DNA of 64,000 bases from an uncultured Actinomycetota bacterium (GCA_963819985.1 CAWFYH010000002.1:385404-449403), one strand, 5' to 3'. Counted from the stretch's first letter, positions 11,038-47,225 are shown. The notes: generated by a model not told the origin, from the sequence alone. Numbers and translations: made by a program.

Positions 11038-12144
11038 GTGACCTCGACAGAAGAGCTGCGCCGTTCGCCCCTGGACTCCAGCCACCGGGCACTGCAGGCC
11101 AAGATGGCCGATTTCGGCGGCTGGGAGATGCCGATCGAGTACGCCACGGGTGGCGTCCTCAAGGAACACGCCGCCGTGCGCGAGACCGTCGGCGTGTTCG
11201 ACGTCAGTCACCTCGGGAAGGCCAGAGTCGTGGGGGACGGCGCAGCGGACTTCGTCGATGCCTGCCTCACGAACTCGCTGGCCCGGATCCGTCCTGGGCA
11301 AGCGCAGTACACCCTGTGCTGCGACGAGTCGGGGGGAGTAGTGGACGATCTCATCGCCTATCTCCGTTCGCCGTCTGAGGTGCTGCTGGTCCCCAACGCG
11401 GCCAACAACGCAGACGTCGTGGCCCGATTGACCGCCGCCGCGCCACCCGAGGTGGTTGTCAGTGATGAGCACGAGACCTACGGAGTCATCGCCGTCCAGG
11501 GGCCACGATCCGCCGAAGCGTTGTCCGCGATTGGTCTCCCCACCGACCACGACTACATGAGCTGGGTGGAGGCCGAGTGGGCCGGCGAGCCGGTCGTGGT
11601 CTGTAGAACCGGCTACACCGGAGAGCATGGATACGAGTTGTTGCCCACGTGGTCGTCCACCCCGCGCTTGTGGGAGGCACTGCTCGGCGCCTGCGAAGCC
11701 GTCGGCGGCCGACCCGCGGGGTTAGGCGCCCGCGATACGCTCAGAACGGAGATGGGCTATCCGCTGCACGGGCAGGACCTCAGCAGGAAGATCACACCGG
11801 TGCAGGCGCGCTCGGGCTGGGCGGTCGGTTGGGACAAGCCGACTTTCTGGGGGCGAGCAGCTCTGCTGGCCGAGCGGGCGGCCGGGCCGGAGCGGGTTCT
11901 TCGCGGTCTCGAGGCCCTTGACCGAGGCATCCCACGACCCCACATGCCGGTGACCAAGGATGGTGTTGCGGCGGGTCACGTGACCTCGGGGACCTTTTCG
12001 CCCACTCTTCGCGTCGGAATCGGGCTCGCCCTCCTCACGCCCGATGTGACCGAGGGCGACCAGGTCGAGATCGACGTACGCGGGCGCCCCAGTCGCTTTA
12101 GCGTGGTCCGACCGCCGTTCGTCGACGCAGATCCCAAGCGCTAG
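11038..12144 (+). CDS. gcvT: Glycine cleavage system T protein (aminomethyltransferase)
   Basis: N-terminus [31 protein letters not shown] is the classic GcvT start. Length 368 aa. Confidence 0.9.
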
Positions 12145-13244
12145 ACCCCGTCACCGTTTCGGATCGCGGCTCGTGGGACCTCAGCCTGCTCGAACGTCGA
12201 CATCTCAGCGAGAGTCACCTGGGCCGCGCGCAAGACTGGTAGGGCCAACAGCGCGCCGGTTCCCTCGCCGAGATGCAGGGAGAAGTCGACGACGGGTGTG
12301 AGCCGGAGCCGTTCGAGTGCGGCCGTCTGCGCGGGTTCGGGTGAGCGATGACCGGCGAGCCACCACAACCGAGTGCGGTGGGCGATCCGCTGCGCGACCA
12401 GGGCGGCCGCGCACGAGACCACGCCGTCGAGCAGCACCGGCGTCCTTCGGATCGCCGCCTGGACGAGGAAGCCGGTCATTCCTGCGATGTCCGCGCCACC
12501 ACAGACAGCCAAGACCTCGATCATGTCCCCGGTAGCCCGACGCCCTCGCCGGGCGCAGTCGCGGACCGCCGCGCACTTCGTCATCCAGGTGTTGTCGTCG
12601 ATGCCGGTGCCGCGACCGACCATCGAGGCCACGTCCGACCCGGTGAGGACTGCGGTCAGCGCTGCCGCGGCGGTCGTGTTGCCGATGCCCATGTCACCCG
12701 GGATCAACAGATCGGCTCCCGCGTCGACCTCCTCGTCGGCGATTCGCTGCCCGGCGACGAATGCCGCCGTGGCCTCCTCAGACGTCAAAGCCGGTCCGAT
12801 CGCCAGGTCAGCCGAGGATCGCCGGATCTTGTGCTCCGTCACCGACGCCGGGACCGCCGCGTCGACGGCTTCCCAGTCGATGTCGACGGCGAGGTCGACG
12901 ACCCTCACCTTCACGTCGTTCAGCCGGGCGAGCGCGTTCACCGCGGCGCCACCGGCCAGGAAGTTGCGGACCATCGAAGCCGTGACCTCGGGGGGATAGG
13001 CGCTCACCCCTGACCGGGCCACCCCGTGGTCACCGGCGAAGATCACCACCGTCACTCGATCCAACGGCCGCGGTGGACAACTGTCCTGCACGGACGACAG
13101 CCAGACGGACAGTTCCTCCAAGCGGCCAAGCGAGCCGGCAGGTTTGGTGAGCTCGCCCTGACGCTCCTGGGCTTGCTGCGCAGCGTCGGCCGAGGGCGAG
13201 CCGACCGCGGCATCGAGCGCCGGCAGGTCGATGGAGTGACTCAT
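12141..13244 (-). CDS. cobT: Nicotinate-nucleotide--dimethylbenzimidazole phosphoribosyltransferase
   Basis: Motifs [21 protein letters not shown] and [10 protein letters not shown] are characteristic of CobT. Last gene of, or immediately after, the B12-regulated operon. Confidence 0.85.
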
Positions 13245-13422
13245 GACGCGGGCGCCTGGTCGATTGAGCTGACGGCACGGCGAGTCATCGGCACCGAACC
13301 TCTGAGCGGGATCGACCGACCTGTCACCGTCGGCACGACAGCCACGGCGCCTGGACCGACCTCGTTGGACACGGGCACCACAGTCGCACGTGTCGTGCGC
13401 ACCGCAAGCAGCAACCCGTGCA

Positions 13423-14253
13423 TCAGCCAGGCACCCGTGCGTGGACTTCTTGGGGAGGCTGGAACACGATGGGCGCCTCGAAGGCGGCTCGTCGCGAAGC
13501 GCGACGCAGGGTACGCAGCAGGGGGGCGCCGAGGGCGATCACCAGGATGAAGGTGCCCGCTGCTCGGGCCACGTCGAAACCCAGCGAGGTGGCCACGCAG
13601 AACGCGAGGAACCGAGCCAGGTTCTCCGTGACCGGGTCACCCGGCACGAACGCAAGCCCGGAGGACAGCCCCCCCGTGAACGGCCAGAACCACAAGTTGA
13701 GCAGGAAGCCGTACGCGATTGCTGCCGCGGCGCCATAGGTCGCGACCAGCATGAGCTCAACGCGGCCGCGGGCCGGCGGCAAGCAGCCCGCGCCAAACCC
13801 GACCCATGCGGCACCGAGCATCTGGAACGGCAGCCACGGCCCGACGCCTCCCGTCAGCAGCGCCGACGCGAACAGGGTGACGGCGCCGAGCAGGAAGCCG
13901 AAGCCGCGCCCGAGGACGCGTCCGCCGAGGATGACGAGCAGAAGGACAGGGGAGAACCCCGTGATTCCGCCACCGAAGGGCCGCAGGGCTGCGCCGACGG
14001 CGGCCAGGACGCCGAGCAAGGCCACGGCCTTGGCGTCGAGCCCGCCCTCGGAGATCTCGGCGAGGAGGACGCCGAGCAAGAGGGGGAGCAGAACCGCGAA
14101 GACGAGCGGGGCGTCGCCTGAGTGGGCGAGGTCGGAGCCCGGATCGGCCAGCAACGGCCAACCGAAGGCGATGACCCCAACCGTCGTCACGAGCGCGAGG
14201 GCAGCTGCAGATCGGGGGCGAAGGCGCAGCGCCCGACCGGCGCGGCTGGTCAT
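13423..14253 (-). CDS. ECF transporter substrate-specific (S) component, multi-TM; candidate cobalamin/corrinoid-specific (CbrT-like)
   Basis: Hydrophobic protein with six to seven predicted TM helices and no ATPase motifs. It follows the A and T components with 4-nt overlaps. The operon is under a cobalamin riboswitch. Confidence 0.65.
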   Translation of the reverse strand: MTSRAGRALRLRPRSAAALALVTTVGVIAFGWPLLADPGSDLAHSGDAPLVFAVLLPLLLGVLLAEISEGGLDAKAVALLGVLAAVGAALRPFGGGITGFSPVLLLVILGGRVLGRGFGFLLGAVTLFASALLTGGVGPWLPFQMLGAAWVGFGAGCLPPARGRVELMLVATYGAAAAIAYGFLLNLWFWPFTGGLSSGLAFVPGDPVTENLARFLAFCVATSLGFDVARAAGTFILVIALGAPLLRTLRRASRRAAFEAPIVFQPPQEVHARVPG

Positions 14254-15866
14254 CCCGCCTCCGGCAGAACCGCCGCGACGTCGGCCACCGTGAGCCAGGG
14301 CTGCGGCGCCAGGATCTTGGCTGTCTGAGGCGCAAAGGCAGGCGAGGAGATCACGATGTCCGCAGTGACGCCATCAGCCACCACCTCACCATCGGCGAGC
14401 ACCACAACTCGGTCAGCCGCCTCCGCCACGAGCTCGACGTCGTGGGTGGCTACCACCACGGCGGTGCCGCTCGCCGCCCGCGCGCGCAAGACCTCGACCA
14501 GCCGCCGCTTGGTCGGGTAGTCGAGACCACGCGTGGGTTCGTCCAGGAGCAGGACGGAGGGATCGGCCGCAAGAACCACAGCGAGAACCAGGGCTAGGCG
14601 TTGTCCCTCAGACAGGTCTCTGGGGTGAGTGGCCGGGTCGATGCCCGGCACAAAGGACTCGAACAGAGCCGCAGTTGTCCCGGGGGCAGCGCCGGAGTCG
14701 CCGTCGGCCGCCGCGCACTCGCGCGTCACGGTCTCGGCGAACAGCAGGTCGGCCGCCTCCTGAGGCACCAGGCCTGCTCGCTTCAGCAGGTGTCGTGGGC
14801 TGAGGTCAGCGGGGGCGTCGCCGCCCATGATCACCTGGCCGTCGTCGGGCCGCCGCAATCCCACCATCGCGCCGAGCAGGGTCGACTTGCCCGCGCCGTT
14901 GCGGCCCATGACTGCGACTACCTCGCCCGCCGCCATCGTGAGGTTCACCCTGCGCAAAGCTGTGGTGGACCCGTGCCGGATCGTCACGTCCCTCAGCTCC
15001 ACGCGCACCTCGCTCGCAGCACCCATAGGCCGCCCGCGCGGAGTCGGAGGTAGGAGCCCGAGGCTTTCGCGTAAGGGTCCCGCCATCCGCCGGGCATCTC
15101 GAACCGACAGCGGCAGCGGCCGCCAGCCGGCCAACCGGCCGAGCTCGACGACCGGAGGGACCACCGGGGACGCCGAGAGGATCGTTGCCGGATCACCGGC
15201 CACGAGGCCGCCGTCTCCGGTCAAGCGCACCACCCGGTCGGCGTACTGGACCACTCGCTCCAGCCGGTGCTCGGCTACCACCACGGTTAGTCCTAGGTCG
15301 TGCACCAACCGGTGCAGGGCACCGAGTACGTCGTCGGCGGCTCCGGGGTCAAGGGCCGACGTGGGTTCGTCGAGCACCAGGATGTGCGGGTGGGCCGTGA
15401 GGACCGACCCGATGGCTACCCGTTGGCGCTCGCCCCCCGAAAGCGTTCGCAGCGGGCGATGACGCAGCTGGGCTAGACCGAGGAGGTCCAGAGTCTCTTC
15501 CACCCGCTTGCGCATGACGTTGGCCGGTAGCCCCAAAGACTCCATTCCGTAGGCGAGCTCGTCCTCGACCAGGTCGGTGACGAACCCTGCCAACGGGTCT
15601 TGGCCCACCACACCGACGACGTCAGCCAAGTCGCGTGGTCGGTGGGTGCGGGTGTCGCGGCCCCCGACCGTCACCCGCCCGCCGAGCGTGCCTCCGGTGA
15701 AGTGGGGCACGTGCCCGTTCATGGCGCCCAGCAGCGTCGACTTGCCTGAGCCCGTACGTCCTACGACCAGGCAGAGCTCACCTTCATTCACGTGGAGGTC
15801 GATGTCGCCCAGGATGGGGTGCGCGGTGTCGGGGTAGGTGACACTGACCGACTGGAAGTCGATCAT
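14250..15866 (-). CDS. ECF transporter duplicated ATPase (two ABC ATP-binding domains fused; CbrU-like EcfA1-EcfA2)
   Basis: Two Walker A motifs GRTGSGKSTLL and GRNGAGKSTLL, two LSGG-type signatures (LSGGERQRV, LSEGQRLAL) and two Walker B motifs (LVLDEPTS, LLLDEPTR). Confidence 0.9.
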   Translation of the reverse strand: MIDFQSVSVTYPDTAHPILGDIDLHVNEGELCLVVGRTGSGKSTLLGAMNGHVPHFTGGTLGGRVTVGGRDTRTHRPRDLADVVGVVGQDPLAGFVTDLVEDELAYGMESLGLPANVMRKRVEETLDLLGLAQLRHRPLRTLSGGERQRVAIGSVLTAHPHILVLDEPTSALDPGAADDVLGALHRLVHDLGLTVVVAEHRLERVVQYADRVVRLTGDGGLVAGDPATILSASPVVPPVVELGRLAGWRPLPLSVRDARRMAGPLRESLGLLPPTPRGRPMGAASEVRVELRDVTIRHGSTTALRRVNLTMAAGEVVAVMGRNGAGKSTLLGAMVGLRRPDDGQVIMGGDAPADLSPRHLLKRAGLVPQEAADLLFAETVTRECAAADGDSGAAPGTTAALFESFVPGIDPATHPRDLSEGQRLALVLAVVLAADPSVLLLDEPTRGLDYPTKRRLVEVLRARAASGTAVVVATHDVELVAEAADRVVVLADGEVVADGVTADIVISSPAFAPQTAKILAPQPWLTVADVAAVLPEAG

Positions 15867-17005
15867 GCCGCCACCTCGTGCTCGAGGTCGCGGCCGCTGT
15901 CCTTCGAGGCGACCATTGCCGGCCCTGGACGCGCTTCCTGGGGCGGCGTGGTCCAGGTGGGCAGCAGTCCGACCAGGATCGCGAGGGCCGGGAGAAGCGG
16001 CACGACCGGCCAGGCCAACGGGCTGGACGGGATGAGCAGACCGGGCACGTCCTTAGCCGCCGCCAGGATCAGCACGATGGCCGGTACGGCGCCGGACGCG
16101 ACGGTCGACCACTCCGGCCACAGCCACGGGTCGGGCCGGTAGCGCGTGCGGATGCTGCGACGACTCGCGAGCCCAAACCCGACCGTGGCCAGGATCGCAC
16201 CGACCAGCACTGCGCCGAGGCCGAGGCCAGACGGGCTGTCCGCATCGAGCAGGCCGTACAACCCGAGGACCATCCCCAAGAGTCCGCCAAGAACGAGGGT
16301 CGCGGTGACCCGCCGAGAGCGTGTCGACACCTCGGCTCGTCGACCGTAGCCGCGCGCATCCATCGACGCCGCCAGCCGGAGGGAGCGCTGCAGGGCACCT
16401 TCCAGGGCGGGGAGGGCCACGGCCCCGAGCCCGGCGAGCCCGTGGTCAGAGCGGCCGCGCAGACGCCGGGCCTGTCGCAGCCGCTGCACGTCTTCGACGG
16501 CCTGCGGGGCCAGGGTCAAGGCCACGATCACGGAGACGCCGACCTCGTAGAGAGCTCCTGGCACGGCCTTGAGCAGCCGGCTCGGGTTGGCCAGAGCGTT
16601 GGCGGCGCCAACGCAGGCGATCATCGCGGCGATCTGGCAACCGTCGCGAAGAGCAGAGGCCAGACCCTCCAGAGTTATCGGACCGCCCACGTCGACGCCT
16701 GCTGCCCAACCAGGGAGGGGCAGTTGCGGCAAGTCGACCAGCACCGTCGGCCCCGCGTCGGCCCCGAACACCACCTCGAAGGCCATGCGTACGGCGATGA
16801 CGATTGCGCCCAGCACCAACGCAGCTCGGAAGGCGCGTGCCCACGGGGCGCTGGTCCGCCGGGCCGCGACCACGTAACCCGCGACGACCACCAGCAGCGC
16901 TAGCAACACCAGGTTGTTGGTCGAGCTCGCCGCAGCAGCCAGCCCCAAGGCCCACAGCCACCAGGCCCCGGGATGCAGCGCGCGAGCGCCTGCCGACGTT
17001 CTCAT
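15863..17005 (-). CDS. ECF transporter transmembrane (T) component (CbiQ/EcfT family)
   Basis: ORF 15863..17515 trimmed to an internal ATG at 17005 (MRTSAGARALHPGAWWLWALGLAAAAS...). Upstream of that the frame is Arg-rich nonsense. Multi-TM protein with an EcfT-like ARG-containing loop. The start overlaps the upstream gene stop (ATGA). Confidence 0.75.
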   Translation of the reverse strand: MRTSAGARALHPGAWWLWALGLAAAASSTNNLVLLALLVVVAGYVVAARRTSAPWARAFRAALVLGAIVIAVRMAFEVVFGADAGPTVLVDLPQLPLPGWAAGVDVGGPITLEGLASALRDGCQIAAMIACVGAANALANPSRLLKAVPGALYEVGVSVIVALTLAPQAVEDVQRLRQARRLRGRSDHGLAGLGAVALPALEGALQRSLRLAASMDARGYGRRAEVSTRSRRVTATLVLGGLLGMVLGLYGLLDADSPSGLGLGAVLVGAILATVGFGLASRRSIRTRYRPDPWLWPEWSTVASGAVPAIVLILAAAKDVPGLLIPSSPLAWPVVPLLPALAILVGLLPTWTTPPQEARPGPAMVASKDSGRDLEHEVAA

Positions 17006-17910
17006 GCGGCATCCCGTGGGGCTGCTGAGCGGAAACGCAGCGCGGCGGCCGCGCCGACGAGGAGCACGAGGACACCCCCCAGCAGGACCCCGAGTGGCGT
17101 TCCCGACGACGACCCGCCGGCAGGAGGCGGGGCGGCTCCGACAGCGAGCGCCGGGCCGCTGGAGTCCGGACCAGCGCTGGCCGTCGCTGGGCCGTCGGTG
17201 GCCGAAGGTGATGGTGTAGGCGTAGCAGCCATCTTGGTAGATCGGGCTTTCGAGCCGGTTCCTTCGGTGCTCGGCGAGGTGCGGGAGGCGGTCGGGCTCT
17301 TCATGGTCGAGGAGGATGTTGGTGCCGGTGACTTGGTCGGCCCGCTCTTCGTAGGCGCCGGTTTCGGTGTCGGGCTGGAGGCCTTGACCACGACGCCGCA
17401 CTCGTCCGCGGGGTAGCCCGACAACCCGCAGACCAGACCGCTGCTGAGGCGTGGCTGGTAGCCGGCCGTGGTCAGTGCGGTGAGGCCCCTGCTGCCGTCG
17501 GGTACTACCGCGCACGTGCCTCGTACACCTCCCGGAGGCGACTCTCCGGGCGGGGAGTCAGCTGCCGTGCCGTAGTCGACGACGACGGCCACGCGATCCT
17601 TGCCCGCCGGTCGGGGGGTCTTCCCGCAGATGGTGTTGAACGCGTTTCCCACGGACACCCTCGGCTGGGGAGCCTGCGGGTTCGGCGCAGCAACGACGAA
17701 GCGCCAACCTTCGACGCTCCCGTCGTCTACGGAGTGTCCAGCAGGTCCTAGAGGCCCGTAGGTCCAGGCCGCCTCGGACGGGTTGGCATACCAATAGCTC
17801 CAGTAGCGAAAGCCCGACGCCGCTTCCGCTGGGGCAGCCGCAATCACCATCCCGGCGACGGCGAGCGTGGAAGCGACGATGGTTGCGACGGCCGCCCGGC
17901 GGGCGTTCAC
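17002..17910 (-). CDS. Secreted Cys-containing protein with S/T/P-rich stalk and C-terminal TM anchor, function unknown (first of two surface proteins in the B12-riboswitch operon)
   Basis: GTG start at 17910 gives the signal peptide VNARRAAVATIVASTLAVAGMVIAAAPAEAAS. The mature domain (about 150 aa) has 4 Cys and the motif GFRYWSYWYA. It is followed by a PT/S-rich linker and a hydrophobic C-terminal segment LGVLLGGVLVLLVGAAAAL plus a basic tail. Confidence 0.6.
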   Translation of the reverse strand: MNARRAAVATIVASTLAVAGMVIAAAPAEAASGFRYWSYWYANPSEAAWTYGPLGPAGHSVDDGSVEGWRFVVAAPNPQAPQPRVSVGNAFNTICGKTPRPAGKDRVAVVVDYGTAADSPPGESPPGGVRGTCAVVPDGSRGLTALTTAGYQPRLSSGLVCGLSGYPADECGVVVKASSPTPKPAPTKSGPTKSPAPTSSSTMKSPTASRTSPSTEGTGSKARSTKMAATPTPSPSATDGPATASAGPDSSGPALAVGAAPPPAGGSSSGTPLGVLLGGVLVLLVGAAAALRFRSAAPRDAA

Positions 17911-19247
17911 GCCCCAGTCGCCTCCCCGTTGTGGCGTCGGCGGGTAGCAGCGATGAGCACCGCCCCTGATCCAACGAGTGCGATGCCACCCAGGATGACC
18001 AGCGGATTGGTTGCTCCGGTATCGGGCAGCCCCGGATCGCTGCTTCTCTCCGCTGGTGCCGGGGACGTGCTCGTGGTCGGCTTCGGTGTCGGTTGGGCCG
18101 CCGGAGTCGTCATGGTGGCGGCGATGCGTGCGGAAAAGTCTGAGACGTCCTTGCCGAGGGTCGCCCCGGCAACCGCCGCTAGCCCGAGAGCTCCAGGGCT
18201 CTCCTTGGACTGCGCGGCCGACGCTGATCTGCCTGACGAGCGCTGGGTCGAAAACTTGCTTGCCGGTGCCGGACCAAGATCGCTGACCATCGTGGCGTAC
18301 AACGACTCCGCTGCAACGTGACCGGTCCGCGTCGCGGCGAAGCTGAGCACGGCCCACCCCGAGTTTCCGCCGCTCACCGCGTTAGCGGTGACCTGAGTCT
18401 CGAGCCAAGCCGAGCCCCATCCCGCGACGGTGTCCGCAGCTGAGTTGTCGACCGGACAGGTGAAAGCGGGCACCTCGTCGGCCCAGGAGGCAGTAGCAGC
18501 GGGGCCGTCAGCCAAGCTGAGGCCGGCCACTCCCGGGACCGCCTGGACGGTCGAGAGCAGGTCGGGCGCGCCGCCCGAGTACGGCGAAGCGATACCGCCC
18601 TGGTCCTTGCCCGCACCGGAGCAGTCCACCTGAAAGCTGGCGACGTAGTCCACCGCATCCGGGTCGACAGCGGCGCCGTCGGTGCTGCGGGCCATCAGGA
18701 CGAGCCCTGTGGAATTAAGGTCGGAGTCACCACCAGGGATGTACGGCCAGCCGCCGTCCTTGTTGCGTGCATCGGTGAGGAAGCCGAGCGCGGACTCAGC
18801 CTCGGCCTTGTGACCGACGGCGGCGAGGGCCTGCGAAGCGAGCGCTGCGCTGTTGGTGTCCTCGCCGGAGAAATTCACCGGATCCGCTGCGACACATGAA
18901 CCGCTCGGATCCGGATTGAAGGCCATGAAGCCACCGTCGGAGCACTGCTGGTCCAGCAGCCACCGCACCGCGTCATCGGCGGGCCGGTCTCCCGCAGCCA
19001 CGATGCCGAGGATGCCCAGCGACTGCCGGAACACTCCGTCGTAGCTCGGGTCGGCGGTCCCGTACAGACCGACGAGAGCCGGATCGACCTTGGGGGCGGC
19101 CGTCGCGCTGGTGGCCAAGAGCGGCAAGCCGAGCAGGACGGCCGCGAACGCAACTCCCACCGCGGAGGTCCGGCGCACGCGTCGGCTCGGAGCCGCGGAG
19201 CTGCGGTTGAGTTGGTTGAGCTGGTTGAGCTGGTTGAGCTCAGACAC
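17907..19247 (-). CDS. Sortase-anchored (LPDTG) surface protein with prenyltransferase/squalene-oxidase-type alpha/alpha-toroid repeats
   Basis: GTG at 19247 gives VSELNQLNQLNQLNRSSAAPSRRVRRTSAVGVAFAAVLLGLPLLATSATA (signal peptide). The body contains repeated GG(W/F) and QxxDGG(W/F) motifs (QQCSDGGFMAF, NKDGGWPYIPGG) typical of terpenoid-cyclase/prenyltransferase beta-subunit repeats. The C-terminus is LPDTGATNPLVILGGIALVGSGAVLIAATRRRHNGE, a sortase sorting signal. Confidence 0.75.
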   Translation of the reverse strand: MSELNQLNQLNQLNRSSAAPSRRVRRTSAVGVAFAAVLLGLPLLATSATAAPKVDPALVGLYGTADPSYDGVFRQSLGILGIVAAGDRPADDAVRWLLDQQCSDGGFMAFNPDPSGSCVAADPVNFSGEDTNSAALASQALAAVGHKAEAESALGFLTDARNKDGGWPYIPGGDSDLNSTGLVLMARSTDGAAVDPDAVDYVASFQVDCSGAGKDQGGIASPYSGGAPDLLSTVQAVPGVAGLSLADGPAATASWADEVPAFTCPVDNSAADTVAGWGSAWLETQVTANAVSGGNSGWAVLSFAATRTGHVAAESLYATMVSDLGPAPASKFSTQRSSGRSASAAQSKESPGALGLAAVAGATLGKDVSDFSARIAATMTTPAAQPTPKPTTSTSPAPAERSSDPGLPDTGATNPLVILGGIALVGSGAVLIAATRRRHNGEATGA

Positions 19248-19349
19248 TGGTGTGCCTCTCGAGAGCGGTCCAAGGCCTCGCCCGGGAACCCACTCGTGAC
19301 AGCGCCCCCGTCTCGCCGACCGAAGGTCAGACGATGGACAAGGGCGCGG

Positions 19350-19560
19350 ACTCGGGTCTGGGTGACCCGGGCTCCGCCCCGTAGACCTCGACGGTTTAAG
19401 GGAGCCGCTCGCGCCTGCCCAGGTATCCCGGCTCGTCGTCACCCGCGAAGGTGGCGACCTACGGTTGCGGGTCAGCGCCGGAATTCGACCGGACTTCCCC
19501 TGGGCCTGCACGTGTTCAGTTGTGGGCTGACCGTCTCACCTTCGGAGCAGGCGTGTCAAA
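19350..19560 (-). promoter_or_regulatory. Cobalamin (AdoCbl/B12) riboswitch in the 5' leader of the ECF/surface-protein operon
   Basis: The minus strand reads ...GGTGAGACGGTCAGCC...CAGGGGAAGTCCGGTCGAATTCCGGCGCTGACCCGCAACCGTAGG...GACGAGCCGGGATACCTGGGCAGG. This matches the conserved cobalamin riboswitch core (GGGAAgYCGGTGnnAATCCGGCGCnGnCCCGCnACnGT) and a B12-box-like AGCCGGGATACCTGGGC. It is followed by a GC-rich hairpin before the GTG at 19247. Confidence 0.85.
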
Positions 19561-21318: not shown

Positions 21319-22314
21319 TCACGGTCGGTCGCTGGGACTCTGCGTCTTGGCCGGATCGCGCTCCACGACCGGACCCACGACCTCGTCGATCGCTCCTAGG
21401 AGGTCGTCGTCGAGGGTGACTCCTGCAGCCTTGACGTTCTCAGTCACCTGTTCGGGACGTGAAGCCCCCATGATGGCTGCCGCGACGTTGGGATTCTGGA
21501 GCACCCAAGCAACGCCGAGCTGAGCCATCGTGAGGCCGGCCTGCTCGGCCAACGGACGCAGTTGCTGCACGCGGGTGAGGACGTCGTCGGTGCGGTAGTC
21601 ATCGAGATAGTCGGCCGACTTGGGTGCAGCGGCTCGAGATGCCTCGGGGGGAGGCTGCCCGGGCAGGTACTTCCCCGTGAGAACTCCCTGGGCCAACGGA
21701 CTCCACACGATCTGGGACAGCCCGAGCTCCTCGCACGTGGGCACGACCTCGGCCTCGATGACCCGCCAGAGCATGGAGTACTCCGGCTGGTTGCTGACCA
21801 ACGGAACGTGCAGCTCGCGGGCCAGCTCCGCCGCGGCGCGGATCTCCTCCGCTCGCCACTCCGAGACCCCGATGTAGTGCGCCTTGCCGGCGCGCACGAT
21901 GTCAGCGAAGGCGACCATCGTCTCCTCGAGCGGCGTGCGGTAGTCGTATCGGTGCGCCTGGTAGAGATCGACGTGATCGGTCTGGAGTCGTTCGAGGGAA
22001 TGGTCGATCGAAGCCAGAATGTGCTTGCGGGACAGGCCCCGGTCGTTGACCCCATCGTTCATCGGCCAATAGACCTTCGTGAAGATCTCCAGGCCCTCGC
22101 GTCGCTCGCCGGATAGCGCCTTGCCGAGCACGGTCTCCGCGCGGCCGGTGGCATAGATGTCCGCGGTGTCGAAGGTGGTGATCCCGGAGTCGAGCGCCGC
22201 TCTGACACACGCGATGGCTGCGCCGTCGTCGATCTGGGACCCGTGGGTGACCCAGTTGCCGTAGGCGATCTCGCTGATCTGCAGGCCGGAACGGCCGAGG
22301 TATCGATGCTCCAT
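21319..22314 (-). CDS. Aldo/keto reductase family oxidoreductase
   Basis: N-terminus MEHRYLGRSGLQISEIAYGNW...DTADIYA is the AKR signature. Length 331 aa. Confidence 0.85.
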   Translation of the reverse strand: MEHRYLGRSGLQISEIAYGNWVTHGSQIDDGAAIACVRAALDSGITTFDTADIYATGRAETVLGKALSGERREGLEIFTKVYWPMNDGVNDRGLSRKHILASIDHSLERLQTDHVDLYQAHRYDYRTPLEETMVAFADIVRAGKAHYIGVSEWRAEEIRAAAELARELHVPLVSNQPEYSMLWRVIEAEVVPTCEELGLSQIVWSPLAQGVLTGKYLPGQPPPEASRAAAPKSADYLDDYRTDDVLTRVQQLRPLAEQAGLTMAQLGVAWVLQNPNVAAAIMGASRPEQVTENVKAAGVTLDDDLLGAIDEVVGPVVERDPAKTQSPSDRP

Positions 22315-45802: not shown

Positions 45803-45994
45803 GATCCACCACGCGGTCGCGACCAAACCGACGGCGGCTGGCGCGGAATCGTCGCTCTCCCGGGTGACGACGGTGTGGCAGGTTTGATTCCGGCCCCGCT
45901 GGTGGCTACTGTGCTCGCGGATGTCGGTTCGACGCCTCTCGCCCGAGAGGCATCCGGCGTCTCCGCTCAATCCGATGTGAACGAGCTCCATCGC

Positions 45995-46135
45995 CTAGGT
46001 GGCGGAGTCCGCGAGCAACGGAACCGGGGAACCATGTTCCTGGGGTGAATCACCGGCGATCCGTCGCCGGAGTAGGGCGACTTCCCCGCCCGAACCCGTC
46101 AGCTCACCCGGTAGGCGGTCGAGGAAGAGGAGAGC
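45995..46135 (+). ncRNA. ydaO/kimA-type cyclic-di-AMP riboswitch in the leader of the NlpC/P60 hydrolase gene
   Basis: Contains CGGGGUGAAUC, GUAGGGCGA(N)UCCCC and GCCCGAACCCGUCAGCUCACCCGGUAGGCGGUCGAGGAAGAGGAGAGCC. These are near-identical to the conserved ydaO elements (CCGAACCCGUCAGCUAACCucGUAAGCG...GAGGAG). An SD GAGGAG lies 10 nt before the GTG at 46143. Confidence 0.85.
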
Positions 46136-46142
46136 CGCCTTC

Positions 46143-47225
46143 GTGGCGACCCGCCATCGCGCAGCCGTACGGCGTTCGCTTGCCGCCCTTGCTGCCGTCG
46201 TCTGCGCCCTGACCTTGGCCCCCGCGATCAGCCAGGCCGATCCACAGCCCACCGTCTCCGAGGTCGAGAGACGCGTAGCGGCTCTGCAGGACGATGCCGA
46301 GGCCGCGACCGAGGCCTATCTGGCGGCCAAGCTGGACGCCGACAAGGCGCAGCAGCAGCTGGACAAGGTCAACGCCAAGGTGCGCCGCTCCGAGGCCCAG
46401 CTGGCCGCCCTGCAGAAGACGGTGGGCGGGTTCGCGGCTGCTGCCTATCGGTCCGGTGGCCTGGATCAAAGCTTCGCGTTGCTGCTGGCTGACGACCCCG
46501 GCACCTTCCTCGAACAGGCCAGCGACCTCGACGGCATCGCCCGCCGGCAGTCCGACATCATGCACAAGGTTGCCGTGGCAACCCAGCAGCTTTCCGCTGA
46601 CAAGCTGATCGCCAAGCAGCAGGCGGCGACTCTCGAAGCGATCCGCGCCGACATGGCCACCAAGAAGGCCGCGATCGACGCCAAGGTGGCCGAGGCTCAG
46701 CGGCTGCTAGCCACGCTCAAGGCCGAGGAGCGCCGCAAGCTCGAGGCCCGGCAGGCCGCAGCCCGAGCCGCCAGCGCAGCCGAGGCACAACGGGCTGCGC
46801 AGGCCGCGCGCGCCTCCCGCGACACTCGCAGCACGAGCGGCGGTGGCTCGCCCAGCTACGGCTCGTCCACGCCGGTGTCGGGCCGCGCCGCGGGTGCTGT
46901 GCGCTTCGCGCTGGCCCAGGTCGGCAAGAGCTACGTCTACGCGGCCACCGGGCCCAATTCCTACGACTGCTCCGGGCTGACCATGGCCGCCTACCGCTCG
47001 GTGGGCGTCTACCTCCCGCACCAGTCCAGCGCGCAGTACAACTCCGGTCGGCACATCCCGGCCAGCCAGCTGCAGCCCGGCGATCTGGTGTTCTACTACT
47101 CGCCGATCCACCACGTGGGCATCTACATCGGCGGTGGCCGGATCGTGCACGCAGCGAACCCGTCCACCGGCGTGGCCATCGCACCGCTCTACTCCATGCC
47201 CTACGTCGGGGCCGTTCGACCCTGA
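46143..47225 (+). CDS. Secreted NlpC/P60 peptidoglycan endopeptidase with N-terminal coiled-coil (RipA/RipC-like)
   Basis: GTG start and signal peptide ...VCALTLAPAISQA. A long coiled-coil (Ala/Gln/Lys/Glu-rich) precedes the C-terminal NlpC/P60 domain with the catalytic Cys in YDCSGLTMAAY and His in HHVGIYIGGG. Confidence 0.85.
   Translation: MATRHRAAVRRSLAALAAVVCALTLAPAISQADPQPTVSEVERRVAALQDDAEAATEAYLAAKLDADKAQQQLDKVNAKVRRSEAQLAALQKTVGGFAAAAYRSGGLDQSFALLLADDPGTFLEQASDLDGIARRQSDIMHKVAVATQQLSADKLIAKQQAATLEAIRADMATKKAAIDAKVAEAQRLLATLKAEERRKLEARQAAARAASAAEAQRAAQAARASRDTRSTSGGGSPSYGSSTPVSGRAAGAVRFALAQVGKSYVYAATGPNSYDCSGLTMAAYRSVGVYLPHQSSAQYNSGRHIPASQLQPGDLVFYYSPIHHVGIYIGGGRIVHAANPSTGVAIAPLYSMPYVGAVRP

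Follow-up and report, generated by a model that had tools for sequence, protein, structure and literature searches.

The DNA analyzed here, a stretch of 64,000 nucleotides (nt) from an uncultured Actinomycetota bacterium (GCA_963819985.1, CAWFYH010000002.1:385404-449403; called the window below, with positions counted from its first letter), carries on its minus strand a cobalamin riboswitch followed by two genes for envelope-displayed proteins, A and B, by the three genes of an energy-coupling factor (ECF) transporter, and by cobT. We consider this locus to be, more probably than not, a corrinoid uptake and salvage operon of Actinomycetota that is repressed through the cobalamin riboswitch, with A and B as likely corrinoid binders. 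Gene A (positions 17907 to 19247) encodes a secreted, sortase-anchored (LPDTG) alpha/alpha-toroid protein of 446 amino acids (aa), a distant relative of the SCO2321 family, and gene B (17002 to 17910) encodes a 302-aa protein of the SCO2322 family (Pfam PF28005). The transporter genes come next: the T component of the CbiQ/EcfT family (15863 to 17005; 380 aa), a fused double ATPase, A-A' (14250 to 15866; 538 aa), and the S, or substrate-capture, component (13423 to 14253; 276 aa). The last gene, cobT (12141 to 13244), encodes nicotinate-nucleotide--dimethylbenzimidazole phosphoribosyltransferase, and all six genes lie on the minus strand. Start and stop codons overlap by 4 nt at all four junctions from A through B, the T component, and the ATPase to the S component (GTGA, then three times ATGA), which implies that the five genes are translationally coupled, and cobT follows on the same strand after a gap of 178 nt. 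An earlier note on this DNA had described an ECF transporter preceded by two envelope-displayed proteins, with its genes joined by 4-nt overlaps and cobT behind them, and the family matches and anchoring signals reported below bear out that description.

Cobalamin riboswitch and conserved gene order

A scan of the whole window with Rfam returned exactly two matches above the gathering score, one of which is the cobalamin riboswitch family RF00174; it lies at 19422 to 19499 (minus strand) and scores 36.9 bits, above the family's gathering score of 31.5. Its E value is 9.3e-6 for the 64-kb window with all families and 6.5e-8 for the local region, and the match covers only model positions 46 to 168, that is, the core and the B12-box region, "GAGCCGGGAUACC". 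A covariance model of our own, built from eight homologous leaders, places the aptamer at 19395 to 19541 on the minus strand with 157 bits. The eight leaders share 39 invariant columns, including GGGAA...CCGG...CCCGCAACCGT and AGCCGG..ACC. The earlier note had located the riboswitch at about 19350 to 19560, a range that is correct and slightly generous; the core that it quoted is present in the sequence, and the score against RF00174 upholds the assignment.

Covariation supports the riboswitch fold. Across 51 homologous leaders, base pairing holds in 92% of the cells, compared with 26 to 47% when the partners are slid, and double changes occur in 51 cells, a level that none of 500 shuffles reached. 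For one helix, compensatory changes were found in four of four pairs. Full-length Rfam matches (1-189, or 1-149 of RF01482) were obtained in the homologous leaders L004, L007, L038, L075, and L081, and a cobalamin or adenosylcobalamin (AdoCbl) riboswitch scored above the Rfam gathering score in seven of the nine related loci tested, as well as in cultured Nostocoides sp. HKS02, whose genome is complete. Downstream of the aptamer, the expression platform runs towards a GAGAGG ribosome-binding site (RBS) and the GTG start codon at 19247. Since a search of the leader found no intrinsic terminator between the aptamer and the start codon, the likely options for the action of the riboswitch are translational control or Rho-dependent termination in this G+C-rich leader. 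The motif GCGAGCGGCUCC lies immediately 3' of the aptamer (19395 to 19420, minus strand) and is kept in most of the eight aligned leaders, across distant lineages; it may be part of the expression platform, e.g., as an anti-RBS or a pseudoknot partner.

Related loci were collected by scanning GTDB, at one genome per species, with a B-domain alignment of 14 sequences, which yielded 466 relatives; the best 80 loci were analyzed. Gene content was established by tblastn with the six window proteins and counted on the 61 loci with full flanks on both sides. A, B, and the ECF genes occur together, in the order A-B-T-ATPase-S, in 50 of these 61 loci, and the lineages with this order include Streptomyces, Actinacidiphila, Nanopelagicales, Micrococcales, Motilibacteraceae, Jiangellales, Marmoricola, and Phycicoccus. 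Wherever our covariance model found the element, there was a single copy, which lay on the same strand as the operon and immediately before A (or before B in loci that lack A). This element precedes the operon in 71 of the 80 related loci, or in 68 of the 73 with sufficient upstream sequence. Because both the gene order and the upstream riboswitch are kept across loci, the riboswitch-A-B-ECF unit is a conserved regulon and not a chance juxtaposition; across Actinomycetota, the surface genes are strongly co-conserved with both riboswitch and ECF module.

Transporter, salvage genes, and likely substrate

The transporter is organized as a group I ECF module, with the T component, two ATP-binding cassette (ABC) ATPase domains, and the S component encoded together. 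The T component matches Pfam CbiQ over residues 11 to 222 (32 bits; cutoff, 25) and has seven hydrophobic segments, of which three lie past residue 250. Its C-terminal third (15863 to 16340, minus strand) forms a membrane extension of about 150 aa beyond the CbiQ match, which tblastn finds conserved in relatives and which is an unusual enlargement for an EcfT. The ATPase contains two ABC_tran stretches (173.6 bits), and its top NCBIfam matches are ECF_ATPase_1 and ECF_ATPase_2, with two stretches each. The S component, also with seven hydrophobic segments, reaches 24.7 bits against Pfam ECF_trnsprt, under the cutoff of 30.7, while 19 of 24 orthologues match this family, the best with an E value of 7.6e-13. 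In family searches it resembles S components of the generic ECF family and of the riboflavin type, and a Pfam scan of the window proteins and the orthologues gave no match of the S component to CbiM/NikM and no CbiN.

The gene that follows, cobT, matches Pfam DBI_PRT with 416 bits and NCBIfam PRK00105 with 444 bits. In 21 loci cobU, cobT, and cobS come after the S gene, and these loci include the closest relatives, L001 to L003, whose proteins are 64 to 91% identical to those of the window. The conserved riboswitch-A-B-ECF(-cobUTS) order is directly seen in the loci, as the riboswitch, the genes, their anchoring signals, and the predicted folds are in the window itself. Where the three genes are present, the cobU product is a 470-aa fusion of a metallo-beta-lactamase (MBL) fold with CobU (cobinamide kinase/guanylyltransferase), and cobS encodes cobalamin-5'-phosphate synthase. 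Together, CobU, CobT, and CobS form the nucleotide-loop assembly pathway, by which imported cobinamide is converted to a complete cobamide (cobinamide salvage). The MBL-CobU fusion, of about 470 aa, was seen at L010:12526-13938, at L001:12413-13852, and in about 15 other loci; at L020, L022, L028, and L039, the match is confined to the CobU half. The cobU-cobT-cobS stretch of the relative spans L001:12413-15808, and its counterpart in the window, beyond the S gene and the gap at 13245 to 13422, keeps only cobT.

Since cobU-cobT-cobS follow the transporter genes, the S component is of a generic type, and CbiM/NikM and CbiN are missing, the evidence favors a corrinoid (cobalamin and/or cobinamide) over cobalt as the substrate by a wide margin. 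An importer of cobalt (or nickel) for B12 synthesis, with A and B as metal or metallophore binders and the cysteines of B as ligands, seems to us quite improbable, even if several features would suit it: cobalamin riboswitches commonly govern cobalt transporters, many Streptomyces make B12, and B has four cysteines that are invariant or near-invariant. The T component, moreover, matches a family called "cobalt transport protein" (CbiQ), and several of the families matched by the ATPase are called cobalt transporter ATPases; however, CbiQ and CbiO are generic ECF module families, and the S component, which belongs with ECF_trnsprt and the riboflavin type, lacks the CbiM/NikM and CbiN matches of a cobalt system. 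The neighboring genes are those of salvage (cobU, cobT, and cobS) rather than chelatase or corrin-ring genes, and paired cysteines in secreted actinobacterial proteins would usually form disulfides.

The same downstream genes bear on the import of a lower-ligand precursor (dimethylbenzimidazole or alpha-ribazole, as proposed for CblT) or of a small B12 intermediate, with A and B serving that import or having a structural role. This we hold to be a rather unlikely alternative. It would account for cobT, which activates the lower base, as the immediate downstream gene in the window, and it is compatible with an S component that matches no solved S component; B12 riboswitches are also established as controlling CblT-type genes. 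Yet the operon of the relatives also contains cobU and cobS, which points to the salvage of incomplete corrinoids, and no CblS-type kinase was seen. Two large envelope proteins, one with a toroid cavity, would furthermore be an unusual investment for a base that is small and membrane-permeant.

The surroundings of the operon are also shared with relatives. The stop codon of cobT overlaps the end of the convergent gene gcvT (overlap at 12141 to 12144; gcvT at 11038 to 12144, plus strand), and gcvT lies downstream of the locus in Nostocoides as well. Upstream of the locus stands an aldo/keto reductase gene, confirmed by Pfam in L013, and the open reading frame (ORF) at 21319 to 22314 (minus strand) of the window looks like one by eye. 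To judge from this conserved synteny at both flanks, the operon seems to have resided in the chromosome for a long time and not to be a mobile island. Elsewhere in the window, a cyclic di-AMP (c-di-AMP; ydaO-type) riboswitch was found at 45991 to 46132 on the plus strand (78.9 bits; E value, 1.2e-16). The ORF that it precedes, at 45999 to 47225 (plus strand), encodes a secreted coiled-coil protein whose C-terminal sequence resembles, by eye, an NlpC/P60 cell-wall hydrolase; the association of c-di-AMP riboswitches with cell-wall hydrolases is known in Actinomycetota.

Surface proteins A and B

A has a signal peptide, a Pro/Thr linker, the LPDTG motif, a hydrophobic segment at residues 413 to 431, and an RRRH tail. 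As a sortase-dependent surface protein, it scores 19.8 against TIGR01167 (cutoff, 15.9) and a borderline 19.8 against Pfam Gram_pos_anchor (cutoff, 20), and LPxxG is conserved in the consensus of the A family. The match of A to the NCBIfam equivalog NF053823, "SCO2321 family membrane protein", is full length (residues 29 to 438 against profile positions 3 to 404) and reaches 167.8 bits, below the cutoff of 300; A is a more distant SCO2321 relative at the same genomic position. At the N terminus (19205 to 19240, minus strand), a 9-nt unit (GGTTGAGCT on the plus strand; Tandem Repeats Finder [TRF] score, 65) stands in four tandem copies, which encode LNQLNQLNQLN just after the start codon and ahead of the signal peptide, a tract that could be prone to slippage.

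The AlphaFold2 model of A has a pLDDT of 82.6, with values above 90 in the toroid core, and family scans gave weak matches to prenyltransferase/squalene-cyclase repeats. The fold and the QW-like repeats are common to A and the class II terpene cyclases. Nevertheless, the DxDD general acid of these enzymes is not kept: the cyclase motif P-D-V-D/C-D-T-A aligns to P-D-L-L-S-T-V in A and corresponds to PDxLATV in the family consensus, so that DxDD falls on D-L-L-S in A and on DxLA in the family. Because A lacks this acid, a non-enzymatic binding role for it is plausible on the evidence of the alignment. The motif also speaks against A being an extracytoplasmic toroid enzyme, of the terpene-cyclase/prenyltransferase or glycoside-hydrolase kind, that acts on an envelope lipid or glycan with B as its partner and is linked to B12 by regulation only. 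Prenyl diphosphates would not be expected outside the membrane, and 50 of 61 loci have A translationally coupled to a transporter and governed by a B12 riboswitch; we regard such an enzyme as very improbable.

B begins with a signal peptide and a domain of 150 aa that holds four conserved cysteines. These are followed by a stalk of about 95 aa, rich in Pro, Thr, and Ser, and by a C-terminal transmembrane (TM) helix. W8, W20, G39, R41, and D83 are among the invariant residues of B, and those of A include the DGGW and D.NST loops. It belongs to the NCBIfam SCO2322 family (NF040672; 139.3 bits against a cutoff of 85), and PF28005 ("SCO2322") is precomputed on a database protein, P0001, that is identical to B. 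A profile search among 1.84 billion representative proteins found 2741 representatives of the B family at E values up to 1e-3. The AlphaFold2 model of the B domain (pLDDT, 94.9) has seven strands and two helices. A search of the literature found no paper on the function of SCO2321 or SCO2322.

Among natural proteins, P0151 (L082:303-2492) alone is a credible fusion of B-like and toroid domains; this metagenomic protein of 729 aa has an N-terminal B-like (PF28005) domain followed by two toroid domains. It lies on a contig of 2.6 kb that has no riboswitch and whose upstream gene encodes another toroid protein. In P0151 the two halves of the B domain stand in opposite order. With hhalign, its N-terminal domain matches an alignment of artificially permuted B from end to end (probability, 98.6%; E value, 9e-16) and native B as two swapped pieces; these alignments establish a circular permutation within PF28005. 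A homologue search with this N-terminal domain, for unpermuted B-like domains, gave two fragments only. Two further proteins, P0131 (664 aa) and P0201 (730 aa), were considered as A-B fusions and rejected, as each has an Arg/Gly-rich frameshift middle followed by B's own signal peptide. Given the 4-nt overlap of A and B, a single indel easily yields such artifact fusions.

Probable corrinoid acquisition and known systems

A role in corrinoid acquisition is the best reading of A and B and is well supported by context, because the surface genes are co-conserved with the riboswitch and the ECF genes and the operon continues into cobU-cobT-cobS; for corrinoid binding itself, the two proteins are candidates. 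A number of results weigh against this reading and should be set beside it. Cobalamin riboswitches also govern cobalt uptake and biosynthesis genes, so the riboswitch alone leaves the substrate unfixed, and a search of the leader for an obvious sequestering hairpin, as part of the expression platform, gave nothing convincing. No tblastn match to cobU or cobS was found anywhere in the 64-kb window, and in this organism the two genes are either lost or located elsewhere in the genome. A is dispensable in some lineages, with B and the ECF genes present without it in 6 of 61 loci, and A and B occur without adjacent ECF genes in 5 of 61. These last five loci (L013, L028, L032, L053, and L058) all have the riboswitch: in L013 the riboswitch-A-B unit is directly followed by cobT, with no ECF genes nearby; L028 has matches to cobU, cobT, and cobS upstream on the opposite strand; and in L032 an acyltransferase-3 gene comes next. 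As adjacent ECF genes are missing from the five loci, A and B may work with a transporter encoded elsewhere.

Sequence comparisons with known B12 proteins add to this side. The S component has no counterpart among the solved S components, including CbrT, in PDB sequences at E values up to 10, whether the window protein (phmmer) or a profile of 24 sequences (hmmsearch) is used, and the label "CbrTUV-like" of the earlier note could not be confirmed from sequence. S components diverge fast, and the lack of similarity to CbrT is compatible with the same substrate; "CbrT-like" would describe a likely function and not family membership. Neither Pfam DUF4430 (PF14478) nor Cobalamin_bind (PF01122) was matched at E values up to 10 by A, B, 98 homologues of B, ten permuted B sequences, or P0151, and the window proteins had no match to BtuG/BtuH/BtuJ-type families in Pfam. 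The structures nearest to the model of A are enzymes (terpene cyclases and glycoside hydrolase families), not B12 carriers, with intrinsic factor at rank 57 among the fold matches.

The earlier note had further compared A and B to a transcobalamin split in two. In favor of this analogy stand the toroid fold of A and a weak hhalign signal for a hairpin of B, while the missing DUF4430 and Cobalamin_bind matches and the proximity of A to terpene cyclases count against it. Among the fold matches of B, the transcobalamin-type carriers have the lowest root mean square deviation (rmsd) and the highest identity (15 to 17%) in the list, at noise-level scores and with Cas10 palm-like domains ranking higher. 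The carrier family had been predicted in advance, and its coincidence with the B fold list carries some weight. Against this, Foldseek found nothing in the PDB with an E value below 1 for the B model; in addition, the profiles of A and B retrieved no B12 carriers among PDB sequence matches, the B-family search yielding nothing useful.

In permuted B, the secondary-structure elements follow one another as they do in the transcobalamin beta domain. In hhalign comparisons with a transcobalamin profile of two sequences, permuted B aligns with 87 of the 97 residues of that domain (P 0.02; 2 of 150 column shuffles scored as high), and the hairpin YWSYW...DGxVEGWRF of native B falls on the C-terminal transcobalamin hairpin FWQLL...DGETIELRL (P 0.011; 0 of 150 shuffles), whereas P0151 gave no alignment with the same profile (P 0.62). 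A distant relation of B to the transcobalamin-beta/DUF4430 fold is possible, perhaps, with the chances tilted clearly the other way. Compared with transcobalamin, intrinsic factor, and haptocorrin (2BB5, 2PMV, 4KKJ, and 5NO0), which are single polypeptides, two polypeptides are involved here; A is much closer to terpene cyclases, and B aligns only with circular permutation; homology is a possibility at most. The structural argument for a split transcobalamin is weak. It is doubtful, in our estimate, that A and B form a bipartite, envelope-displayed corrinoid clamp, whose two faces would be a toroid and a circularly permuted transcobalamin-beta-like domain and which would be widespread in Actinomycetota, including Streptomyces. 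What likelihood the explanations discussed so far leave over goes to A and B being accessory to the ECF complex in some other way.

For the uptake and salvage operon that we favor, we infer a corrinoid substrate, direct corrinoid binding by A and/or B, and a relay between the components, which could work as follows. When intracellular (adenosyl)cobalamin is low, the leader RNA would permit expression of the five coupled genes. A would be tied to the peptidoglycan by sortase, and B would expose a disulfide-type, beta-rich domain on its Pro/Thr-rich stalk, held by the C-terminal membrane anchor. Within the thick envelope, A and B would most likely bind corrinoids, i.e., cobalamin and/or incomplete forms such as cobinamide, and hand them to the membrane-embedded S component. 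Import would be powered by the dedicated ECF module, with its T component and fused double ATPase. CobT would then complete the nucleotide loop of imported incomplete corrinoids, in relatives together with CobU and CobS from the same operon, and the resulting cobalamin would switch the operon off.

The riboswitch and a B12-related ECF transporter are of known kinds, and CbrTUV systems were reportedly predicted by Rodionov et al. in 2009 (cited in PMC5997447 and PMC8123684). ECF-CbrT of Lactobacillus delbrueckii imports cobalamin and cobinamide (Santos et al. 2018, PMC5997447). Like the system described here, it is an ECF-type ABC importer tied to B12 metabolism, and its import of cobinamide fits the cobU/T/S context of our loci. 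Unlike ECF-CbrT, the present system comes with its own riboswitch and a dedicated, group I-like module, in which the double ATPase is fused and the T component enlarged; its S component is without detectable sequence similarity to the solved CbrT. Two extracytoplasmic proteins are co-transcribed with it, and none has been described for ECF-CbrT.

A parallel to A and B exists in the surface cobamide-binding lipoproteins BtuG, BtuH, and BtuJ of Bacteroides, for which binding is proven (PMC6143338, PMC8941943, PMC13616437). These, too, are surface-exposed accessory proteins encoded in riboswitch-controlled cobamide transport loci, and they capture the vitamin and pass it to a transporter. The folds, however, are unrelated (BtuG is a beta-propeller and BtuH a novel globular domain), and the Btu proteins are outer-membrane lipoproteins that feed the TonB-dependent BtuB, whereas A and B, as putative binders, belong to a monoderm envelope, where sortase and a TM helix, respectively, anchor them, and they would supply the S component of an ECF transporter. 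By analogy of logic only, the arrangement may also be compared with the Isd-type heme relay found in Gram-positive cocci and with LhaSTA of Staphylococcus lugdunensis, in which wall-anchored (sortase) and membrane-anchored receptors pass a tetrapyrrole through a thick wall to an importer; for LhaSTA, that importer is an ECF transporter for heme (PMC7299338). The differences lie in the heme ligand and the NEAT-domain receptors of those systems and in their regulation by Fur, whose place a riboswitch takes here.

The earlier note had treated the two surface proteins as standing outside the described ECF-CbrT system, and the searchable literature agrees with it: no paper was found that describes the pair of surface proteins ahead of an ECF transporter, its membership of the regulon, or its link to cobU/T/S, and the proteins possibly figure among the co-regulated hypotheticals of Rodionov et al. 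2009. We propose that A and B are surface capture proteins of a monoderm envelope that feed an ECF transporter and come from families unrelated to the known cobamide binders. A review of September 2026 calls the extracellular cobamide binders of Gram-positive bacteria "entirely uncharacterized" (PMC13616437). The locus bears on how monoderms gather scarce cobamides outside a thick wall, and A and B are the best current candidates for extracellular B12 capture in Gram-positive bacteria, carried by tractable genera such as Streptomyces and Nostocoides.

If the less probable clamp should prove true, it would be the first system of extracellular cobamide capture in monoderms, ECF transporters would have their first known accessory receptor, and the clamp could be either related to the B12 carriers of animals or strikingly convergent with them. 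If, more generally, A and B bind corrinoids, ECF transporters, which have been thought to rely on the S component only for capture, would gain an extracytoplasmic receptor layer, and two protein families (SCO2321 and SCO2322/PF28005) would acquire a function. Models of the competition for B12 among soil and freshwater Actinomycetota would then change as well.

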